Shown here: piece after piece, positions 49,769 through 50,300 of the stretch
Layout of the letters: every line of letters begins with the position of its first letter
Numbering within the stretch: the stretch's first letter is position 1
From: Escherichia coli
GTDB taxonomy: Bacteria; Pseudomonadota; Gammaproteobacteria; Enterobacterales; Enterobacteriaceae
Strand: one strand, 5' to 3'
Length of the DNA stretch: 64,000 nucleotides
Assembly (NCBI RefSeq): GCF_001677475.2
Contig: NZ_CP015229.1
Translations under genes and position numbers: made by a program
The notes under the pieces: model-generated
The model's input: the letters and a program-made list of their open reading frames with translations, nothing else
Database searches by the model: none
Told to the model about the DNA's origin: nothing

Positions 49769-49912
49769 TCAATCATTGTATATGAGGCGTGGAATCTTTT
49801 TTTCATCACTCCTGCATACACGCTCATTACTGACGTGTTCATTGCTGATGCAATTTCCCAGGAGGAAAGCAAATAAAAACAAAGAGCCAAGCCAGTATAG
49901 TACTTGCTGCAT
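49769..49912 (-). CDS. 47-aa hydrophobic peptide coupled to the RHH gene
   Basis: MQQVLYWLGSLFLFAFLLGNCISNEHVSNERVCRSDEKKIPRLIYND. The ATG is 3 nt after the upstream stop, with AAGGA 9 nt upstream. It is below the track cutoff. Confidence 0.4.
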   Translation of the reverse strand: MQQVLYWLGSLFLFAFLLGNCISNEHVSNERVCRSDEKKIPRLIYND

Positions 49913-49915
49913 AAG

Positions 49916-50101
49916 TTATTCCTTATCTGATTCTTTGGTTTTTTTCCGTTGGCGGCGTTTGATCTCGCCACGCATGGCTGCGCTTATAAACTGCCCTGTA
50001 CTTTCGCCATCTTCTTTCACGTTTTCCATGCCTTCAATAATTTCATGGGCAATACGTGCAGTTACAGATTGTGATTTTGCATTCTTTGGACCTGTTGCCA
50101 T
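49916..50101 (-). CDS. YlcI/YnfO-like (RHH-type) small regulator
   Basis: 61 aa from MATGPKNAKSQSVTARIAHEIIEGMENVKEDGESTGQFISAAMRGEIKRR with RBS GAGGGG. It is divergent from the icd-like operon. Confidence 0.65.
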   Translation of the reverse strand: MATGPKNAKSQSVTARIAHEIIEGMENVKEDGESTGQFISAAMRGEIKRRQRKKTKESDKE

Positions 50102-50300
50102 GTCTAACCCCTCATGTTTTTGGTGTAAGACAATATACACGAAAAAAAACTATTTTAAAGGGTTGACGTGTAAGACACTGTTGTTTTATGTTGTGTCTTA
50201 CACCTTGAGTGTTCAAGGTTCAGAAACTGCGAAGCCCGTAGGTGCCGCTAACACCCACAGGCTTCTAACCACCAACGATAGTAATAGTATCGAGGCAGCT
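50102..50300. promoter_or_regulatory. divergent switch region with three GTGTAAGACA operator half-sites
   Basis: Copies lie at 50123-50132 and 50168-50177 (direct) and 50194-50203 (inverted). A TTGACG -35 box lies at 50163-50168. A GC-rich leader hairpin GAAGCC...GGCTTC follows. Confidence 0.6.

Follow-up and report, generated by a model that had tools for sequence, protein, structure and literature searches.

A predicted ribbon-helix-helix repressor of the YlcI/YnfO family with three matching putative operators in a capsid-forming phage satellite of Escherichia coli

A 64,000-nucleotide stretch of Escherichia coli contig NZ_CP015229.1 (NCBI RefSeq assembly GCF_001677475.2), hereafter the window, carries a phage satellite of approximately 15 kb. 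The locus of interest in this satellite comprises a ylcI/ynfO-family gene on the minus strand, a gene for a 47-aa hydrophobic peptide behind it, and a 199-bp intergenic region that separates ylcI from a rightward operon, the first gene of which is Icd-like and begins at 50301 (Table 1). The 61-aa YlcI/YnfO-family protein is probably a ribbon-helix-helix (RHH) repressor that acts on three 11-bp sites in the intergenic region, shutting the satellite's rightward operon and regulating its own gene. This reading is carried by the computed fold of the protein, the positions of the sites, and the co-variation of the sites with the protein across related loci. From these we infer DNA binding, repression, autoregulation, and the maintenance of lysogeny.

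Both genes are present as described in the original prediction, and the start codon of the peptide gene follows the ylcI stop codon by 3 nt (junction AAG GAA TAA CTT ATG). The reported repeats are likewise three exact copies of GTGTAAGACA, at 50123 and 50168 on the plus strand and at 50194 on the minus strand, with no others in the 64-kb window. When the 199-bp intergenic region was shuffled 5,000 times with its dinucleotides preserved, a single shuffle contained any 10-mer three or more times. The last two copies had been described as an 11-bp perfect palindrome overlapping a TTGACG −35 box. Their 11-bp arms are indeed a perfect inverted repeat, and the final base of the hexamer lies within the left arm, but the arms are separated by a 14-bp spacer and do not form a contiguous palindrome. 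Every 11-mer is, on its own, near-palindromic (GTGT-N3-ACAC), and the three are listed in Table 1 as predicted operators O1 to O3, together with a promoter-like site in each direction (PL and PR). Two perfect sites, O2 and O3, flank the PR −10 element, whereas a single imperfect site, O1, lies on PL; the model of repression with autoregulation is based on this arrangement. The −10-like sequence of PL, TATA(T/C)T, is retained in most relatives, with the exception of L009 and L016/L017 (L numbers denote individual loci). A LexA box in the intergenic region was ruled out by eye, since CTGT-N8-ACAG is missing.

The comparison set consisted of 19 related loci that represent six or more genera; they come from E. 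coli, Leclercia, Pectobacterium, Xenorhabdus, and Hafnia, and from metagenomic contigs. A search of genome contigs yielded only three loci, and the variety in the set was contributed by E. coli BLAST hits and a search for encoding contigs. In all 19 except L011 and L012, a −35 element of the form TTGA(C/A/T)(G/A), invariant in position, is abutted by a GTG-N5-CAC site, and a further GTG-N5-CAC site is found 23–36 bp downstream of the first. A third, slightly degenerate site is located approximately 20 bp from the ylcI start in nearly all loci, but not in L004, L013, or L019. Within a locus, the 5-bp cores of O2 and O3 are identical or one base apart, while that of O1 is related and slightly degenerate. 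The positions of the sites and their GTG/CAC frame are fixed, and the core varies between loci along with residues 11–15 of YlcI, such that eight classes of strand residues co-vary with eight operator cores (Table 2).

The window and Xenorhabdus locus L018 share the same sites, including the inverted O3, although their other intergenic DNA differs at many positions. Similarly, Pectobacterium L014 and the unrelated contig L020 have identical strand residues and agreeing sites. The core follows YlcI, and not the Icd-like protein, AlpA, or the integrase. The Icd-like proteins of L005 and L007 share 97% identity although their cores differ, and those of the window and L001 share only 60% identity although their core is the same. 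An AlpA is common to L001 and L007, and an integrase to L007 and L009, with different cores in both cases. In L011 (2760–2954) and L012 (2761–2955), the YlcI slot is occupied, in the same divergent position, by a 64-aa protein that belongs to the PHROG family 'Arc-like repressor' (phrog_228). This protein has its own AGGTGTACACCT palindromes, and the peptide gene lies further downstream of it. Because the positions are conserved and protein and operator co-vary across relatives, it is well supported that the three repeats behave as YlcI operators on two divergent promoters. The same evidence lends good support to the earlier proposal of a satellite repressor of the rightward genes.

Table 2. 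Residues 11–15 of YlcI-family proteins and the operators of the corresponding loci.
Residues 11–15	Site	Core	Source
QSVTA / QSVTV	GTGTAAGACAC	TAAGA	E. coli; Xenorhabdus L018
QSLTA		TAAGA / TAAGC / TAAGT	L019
QALKA	GTGGGCCACAC	GGCCA	L007, L008, L010
KRIDA / KRFDV	GTGTCCGACAC or GTGTCGGACAC	TCCGA or CGG-flipped	L009, L003, L002
QQLNA	GTGAATACCAC	AATAC	L013
QKIQA	GTGTACTCCAC	TACTC	L004
QMTTV	GTGTATTTCAC and GTGAAATACAC	TATTT	Pectobacterium L014, unrelated contig L020
LQVSV	GTGGTGTTCAC	GTGTT	Hafnia L016/L017

The 61-aa protein matches the NCBIfam hidden Markov model (HMM) NF041551 (YlcI_YnfO_N) over residues 9–50 (E = 3.8e-18), and its score of 65.3 bits, above the curated cutoff of 30, places it in the YlcI/YnfO family (DUF3950). 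The proteins of the relatives are named identically by the Prokaryotic Genome Annotation Pipeline, and the 61-aa protein is also found in phrog_949, which is annotated 'unknown function'. In the family alignment, N7, K9, S10, R16, E33, F38, E46, and R50 are invariant, and residues 11–15 form a variable block. An AlphaFold2 model built from 48 sequences, with a predicted local distance difference test score of 87, contains an extended segment at residues 10–17 and helices at 19–28 and 35–60. The position of the strand and the two helices, which can be superposed on solved RHH domains, agree with the structural definition of the RHH superfamily, in which an N-terminal strand precedes two helices within about 45 residues. 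The top structural matches of the model are the antitoxins Rv0298, CopA_SO, HicB, TacA, VapB12, and ParD. In a weak hhalign alignment, S12, T14, and R16 of YlcI fall onto Q9, N11, and R13 of Arc, the residues that contact bases in the Arc–operator complex. The RHH assignment of the original prediction is borne out by the model and its structural matches, and the predicted fold is considered well supported.

A literature search on the function of YlcI/YnfO found no functional study. The ylcI gene of E. coli K-12 (L021, 6252–6446) adjoins the cos site and nohD of DLP12, and a check of its surroundings for a GTG-N5-CAC triplet found none. Members of the family in lambdoid prophages may have a different target or role.

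In the proposed mechanism, ylcI would be transcribed leftward from PL, in this element together with the accessory membrane-peptide gene, and the transcript would end at the first of the two leftward terminators in Table 1. RHH dimers would occupy the three GTG-N5-CAC sites. Specificity would come from strand residues 12 and 14, which would read the 5-bp core that varies, while the invariant S10 and R16 would read the outer GTG/CAC. Occupancy of O2 and O3 would cover the end of the PR −35 element and the transcription start, excluding RNA polymerase and keeping off the operon that encodes the Icd-like protein, C4 RNA, DUF4222 protein, and RepA-type helicase. Occupancy of O1, on the start region of PL, would result in negative autoregulation. 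A maintenance repressor is favoured over a Cro- or Arc-type regulator because ylcI points away from the replication operon, as do mnt of P22 and cI of lambda. The region between bro and the leftward operon (49304–49768) is non-coding and largely conserved in relatives (BLAST matches begin at 49500). It contains two minus-strand terminators and no convincing plus-strand one, so that rightward transcription from alpA/bro may be able to read through ylcI.

Several observations weigh against a YlcI repressor of this kind. The hhalign probabilities against single sequences are low (Arc, 5%; Mnt, 0.5%), matches to Pfam RHH_1 stayed below threshold (2 of 48 members, best E = 0.038), a Foldseek search of the PDB gave no match for the YlcI model, and the monomer model does not form the beta strand. 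CB_ParB_C was also below threshold (5 of 48 members, E = 0.039), and a PDB profile search with the 61-aa protein returned E values above 1. Linkage accounts for part of the co-variation, the gene and the sites being adjacent, but the concerted change at three sites means that linkage alone cannot explain it. The C4 RNA is encoded in the same operon and needs some PR activity or another promoter, which implies that repression is incomplete or that C4 has its own start. Finally, the experimentally shown regulator of Gram-negative phage-inducible chromosomal islands (PICIs) is AlpA and not a repressor (PMC6092414).

The rightward operon begins with a structured leader, the second hairpin of which touches, with its 3′ arm, the Shine-Dalgarno sequence of icd-like gene 1. 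Compensatory changes were found in 10 of the 13 pairs of the leader hairpins (RNAalifold, 14 loci), and an invariant CUUCUAACCA motif lies between the two hairpins. The leader did not match any Rfam family. Downstream of icd-like gene 1 is an RNA immunity cassette of the P1/P4 type. Its C4 antisense RNA matches the Rfam C4 model (RF01695) over its full length, with 72.3 bits where the gathering score is 45. The c4-a1b1-like and isrK-like elements are below their gathering scores, at 42.1 (46.7) and 33.7 (50), respectively. The C4 loop UUCCUGUAGUG is exactly complementary over 10 nt to CACTACAGGA, which overlaps the AGGAG Shine-Dalgarno sequence of icd-like gene 2, 8 nt before its ATG at 50791. 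Model score and target complementarity at the ribosome-binding site both identify the RNA as a member of the C4 antisense class, and it would act by masking the ribosome-binding site of icd-like gene 2. The open reading frame (ORF) 50497–50964 (155 aa) was rejected as a single gene, as it reads through the RNA cassette and matches NF033153 only at residues 107–149; its icd-like part is confined to the final 57 codons, beginning with the ATG at 50791.

C4 occurs in two of 20 elements, namely the window and L020. With only one related locus out of 19 carrying it, C4 is an added layer, and the conserved core consists of the RHH protein with its predicted operators. Three layers of control would operate in this element: the RHH protein, the AlpA activators, and the C4 antisense RNA. 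The label 'master switch' given to the locus in the original prediction is thus apt insofar as the RHH protein and its sites are the most conserved control layer, but two AlpA homologues and the C4 module (50535–50781), which had been overlooked, add further layers.

Table 1. Coordinates of features of the ylcI locus and its surroundings in the window.
Feature	Position	Strand	Description
Prophage terL split by satellite	45689–46882 and 62130–62855		
Integrase gene of satellite	46822–48111		
Tandem AlpA-family genes	48077–48310, 48344–48652		after integrase
Second terminator	49469–49496	minus	
Intrinsic terminator of leftward ylcI-peptide transcript	49590–49621	minus	GGGCCACC...GGUGGCC then UUUUCUUU; −31.5 kcal/mol, z = −2.5
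47-aa accessory gene	49769–49912	minus	N-terminal transmembrane segment, two conserved cysteines
ylcI/ynfO-family gene	49916–50101	minus	61 aa, ATG; predicted RHH repressor; putative base-contacting S12, T14, R16
Operator O1 (predicted)	50123–50133		GTGTAAGACAA, last base degenerate; overlaps −10/start region of PL; presumed autoregulatory
PL promoter-like site	50132–50159	minus	−35 TTTAAA (50154–50159), −10 TATATT (50132–50137); consensus scan
PR promoter-like site	50163–50192	plus	−35 TTGACG (50163–50168), −10 TATGTT (50187–50192); consensus scan
Operator O2 (predicted)	50168–50178		GTGTAAGACAC; begins on last base of PR −35 hexamer
Operator O3 (predicted)	50193–50203		GTGTCTTACAC, O2 inverted; directly 3′ of PR −10; covers expected transcription start
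Structured leader	50231–50292	plus	hairpin 1, 50231–50265; hairpin 2, 50276–50292
icd-like gene 1	50301–50504	plus	NF033153, E = 3.5e-20; predicted first gene of repressed operon
P1/P4-type RNA immunity cassette	50535–50739	plus	c4-a1b1-like, 50535–50584; isrK-like, 50548–50626; C4 antisense RNA, 50652–50739
Predicted C4 targets	50740–50781	plus	TTTGACAG, 50740–50747; CACTACAGGA, 50772–50781
icd-like gene 2	50791–50964	plus	57 aa
Right part of satellite	58872–61602		own HNH, terS, terL

The peptide gene was found in six variants (the window, L011, L012, L013, L019, and L020), all with open frames of 47 or 54 aa and with nucleotide identity down to approximately 79%. Hydrophobicity is greatest over residues 4–22 (Kyte-Doolittle 19-residue maximum, 1.94). 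The ratio of nonsynonymous to synonymous substitution rates (dN/dS) is 0.30–0.56 overall and 0.30–0.40 in deep contrasts (dS 0.5–0.9), with lower values in the hydrophobic half, and there is an excess of synonymous changes (Fisher p = 0.04 and 0.0045). These substitution patterns mark the peptide gene as genuinely protein-coding and under purifying selection. In most relatives, however, the gene is absent or replaced. Its DNA is present in 8 of 5,426 E. coli genomes, compared with 1,442 that match the module query. The slot behind ylcI contains the peptide in L001, is empty in L005, L007, and L009, and is filled in L006, L008, and L010 by an unrelated basic ORF of 57–65 aa (phrog_21027). This position is a slot for variable cargo. 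The phrog_21027 ORF, annotated 'unknown function' (L006, 2697–2870; L008, 2721–2918; L013, 2773–2955), contains the sequence ...ERFAPCAFALE.FLKEYR....

In every variant, the peptide gene follows, at a distance of 3 nt, an ORF whose product ends in ...[DE][IL]K[RF]RQRKK.K..E, which is the tail of YlcI. In L011, L012, L013, and L019, this YlcI-like tail belongs to a non-RHH ORF of 39–43 aa. Such ORFs, with only the basic YlcI-like C-terminal tail, are located at 2638–2757 in L012, 2638–2769 in L013, and 2869–2997 in L019. The unit of tail and peptide may move by recombination in the conserved tail-coding DNA. The peptide had no match in Pfam, PHROG, or PADLOC. A word-based protein search returned two near-identical clusters only, and an exhaustive HMM search of 1.84 billion representatives returned only the peptide's own cluster. 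A lipoprotein reading was rejected, as there is no canonical lipobox and the cysteine is preceded by LGN or MKY. The peptide is best regarded as optional cargo that would be co-expressed with the repressor and is not part of the switch, and a membrane-acting exclusion or toxic role for it is a guess.

The original prediction had treated the peptide as a coupled partner of the regulator, resembling a regulator/toxin module. In a toxin-antitoxin (TA) arrangement of this kind, the translationally coupled peptide would be the toxin and the RHH protein its antitoxin, which would regulate its own expression, and the pair would stabilize the satellite or abort infection. Such a reading draws on the antitoxins that the RHH model matches best in structure, on the 3 nt between the ylcI stop and the peptide start, and on the size and layout of the peptide, which are like those of small membrane toxins. 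Nevertheless, the pairing is not supported by gene adjacency: almost every element has the RHH gene with no peptide gene behind it, the slot can be empty or carry an unrelated basic ORF, and the peptide can stand behind an ORF that is not RHH. The operators are mainly on the opposite promoter, and PADLOC, Pfam, and PHROG offered no toxin match. A TA module is thus a very unlikely explanation. It is also improbable, although less so, that immunity is really determined by the C4 antisense RNA, in the way known from P1 immI and P4 CI, with the RHH protein only fine-tuning the promoter that feeds this RNA or, in the manner of Cro or Arc, regulating the lytic phase. The full-length C4 match with a1b1-like and isrK-like elements upstream and the loop complement on the Shine-Dalgarno sequence of icd-like gene 2 speak for this possibility, and immunity RNAs are noted in such satellites (PMC10111431). 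However, the near absence of C4 from related loci that have a divergent repressor slot and an icd-like operon points to an optional layer. Furthermore, transcription of the RHH gene leads away from the replication operon, and the gene has two perfect sites on PR and one imperfect site on its own promoter, an arrangement that fits Mnt, CI, and other maintenance repressors. Cro and Arc, by contrast, are encoded by the first genes of a lytic operon.

The repeats could conceivably be bound by another factor (AlpA, the integrase, the Icd-like protein, or a replication initiator), or not be protein sites, with the small ORF unrelated to them. In favour of this, AlpA, which activates these islands, is known to bind DNA (PMC6092414), and the DLP12 YlcI of K-12 lies beside cos/nohD without such a site triplet. 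This explanation is nonetheless very unlikely, as the core tracks the strand residues of YlcI in eight classes and does not track the identity of AlpA, the integrase, or the Icd-like protein, and the sites are found on promoter elements, whereas the replication region lies elsewhere, downstream of the helicase gene. A YlcI repressor with three operators remains the preferred reading.

The satellite carries the integrase gene, two AlpA homologues, Bro-N, the ylcI locus, DUF4222, a RepA-type helicase, capsid, protease, and portal, followed by its own HNH, terS, and terL; the terL, capsid, and portal assignments are readings of the translations and not HMM matches. Relatives usually have one AlpA and a small hypothetical gene in place of the two. 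By its gene content and its insertion, the element is a helper-embedded, capsid-forming PICI (cf-PICI), a class already described (PMC10111431; bioRxiv 10.1101/2022.09.08.507074). A BLAST query with the module (49500–50520) matched 1,442 of 5,426 complete E. coli genomes, or about a quarter, and the top matches are annotated as a YlcI/YnfO protein beside an Icd-like protein. The module had no BLAST match in the phage collection. When CFT073 was searched at 1.39–1.44 Mb for the prototype EcCICFT073, only the helper prophage at icd was found.

The literature searched on Gram-negative PICIs names the activator AlpA only, and the global repressor is described as unclear by Fillol-Salom et al. The module is a candidate for such a repressor, with mapped predicted operators, and would give a function to satellite-borne members of the YlcI/YnfO family. 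Its eight natural protein/operator pairs would be directly testable and could serve as orthogonal small repressors. In this element, protein repression would be stacked on an RNA immunity cassette of the P1/P4 type. A broader and much more tentative proposal is that YlcI/YnfO RHH proteins are Stl-like maintenance repressors of many Gram-negative PICIs and cf-PICIs, with at least eight immunity types generated by matched swaps of two strand residues and the 5-bp core. Induction would then proceed by helper-activated, AlpA-driven transcription that comes from the int-alpA side and passes antisense over ylcI to reach the icd operon, or by a helper antirepressor that displaces the RHH protein, and the peptide would be a membrane factor expressed in lysogeny to exclude phages or rival satellites. 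If this were true, the matched swaps of residues and cores would represent a readable recognition code.

Among known systems, P22 immI contains the genes of the RHH proteins Mnt and Arc, ant, and the sar RNA. The locus, as predicted, shares with it a small RHH repressor gene divergent from the operon whose promoter is covered by the operator, back-to-back promoters, and an antisense RNA as a second control layer. It differs in that sequence comparison detects no homology of YlcI to either Mnt or Arc, and in that a single operator of 17–21 bp is replaced by three separate 11-bp GTG-N5-CAC sites. The operon encodes the Icd-like and satellite replication proteins rather than an antirepressor, and it does not contain an Arc-like gene as a second RHH gene. 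In P1, the c4-icd arrangement is found in an operon whose promoter is also under the control of a protein repressor, C1, at Op51. An icd-like gene preceded by a C4-family RNA, with a loop that pairs with its ribosome-binding site, is common to P1/P7 immI (c4-icd-ant), P4 CI RNA, and the satellite. Here, however, the predicted protein repressor is of the RHH type and encoded immediately upstream in divergent orientation, icd-like gene 1 precedes the RNA, and most relatives of the module are without C4. The Stl/Rpr repressors of Gram-positive PICIs, the Staphylococcus aureus pathogenicity islands (SaPIs), are also encoded divergently from an excision/replication operon, between the int and rep sides (PMC6092414). 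Stl proteins differ from YlcI in being larger and of the helix-turn-helix type, and it is proteins of the helper phage that release them. With helper-embedded and cf-PICIs (PMC10111431; bioRxiv 10.1101/2022.09.08.507074), the element shares the integrase, two AlpA, Bro-N, C4/isrK RNAs, and RepA helicase, its own capsid, protease, portal, HNH, terS, and terL, and its insertion in a prophage terL. A term search of these papers found no mention of a YlcI-family gene or its operators. An RHH repressor acting on divergent promoters is a textbook mechanism, and the locus is closest to P22 immI in its layout and to P1 immI in its content.

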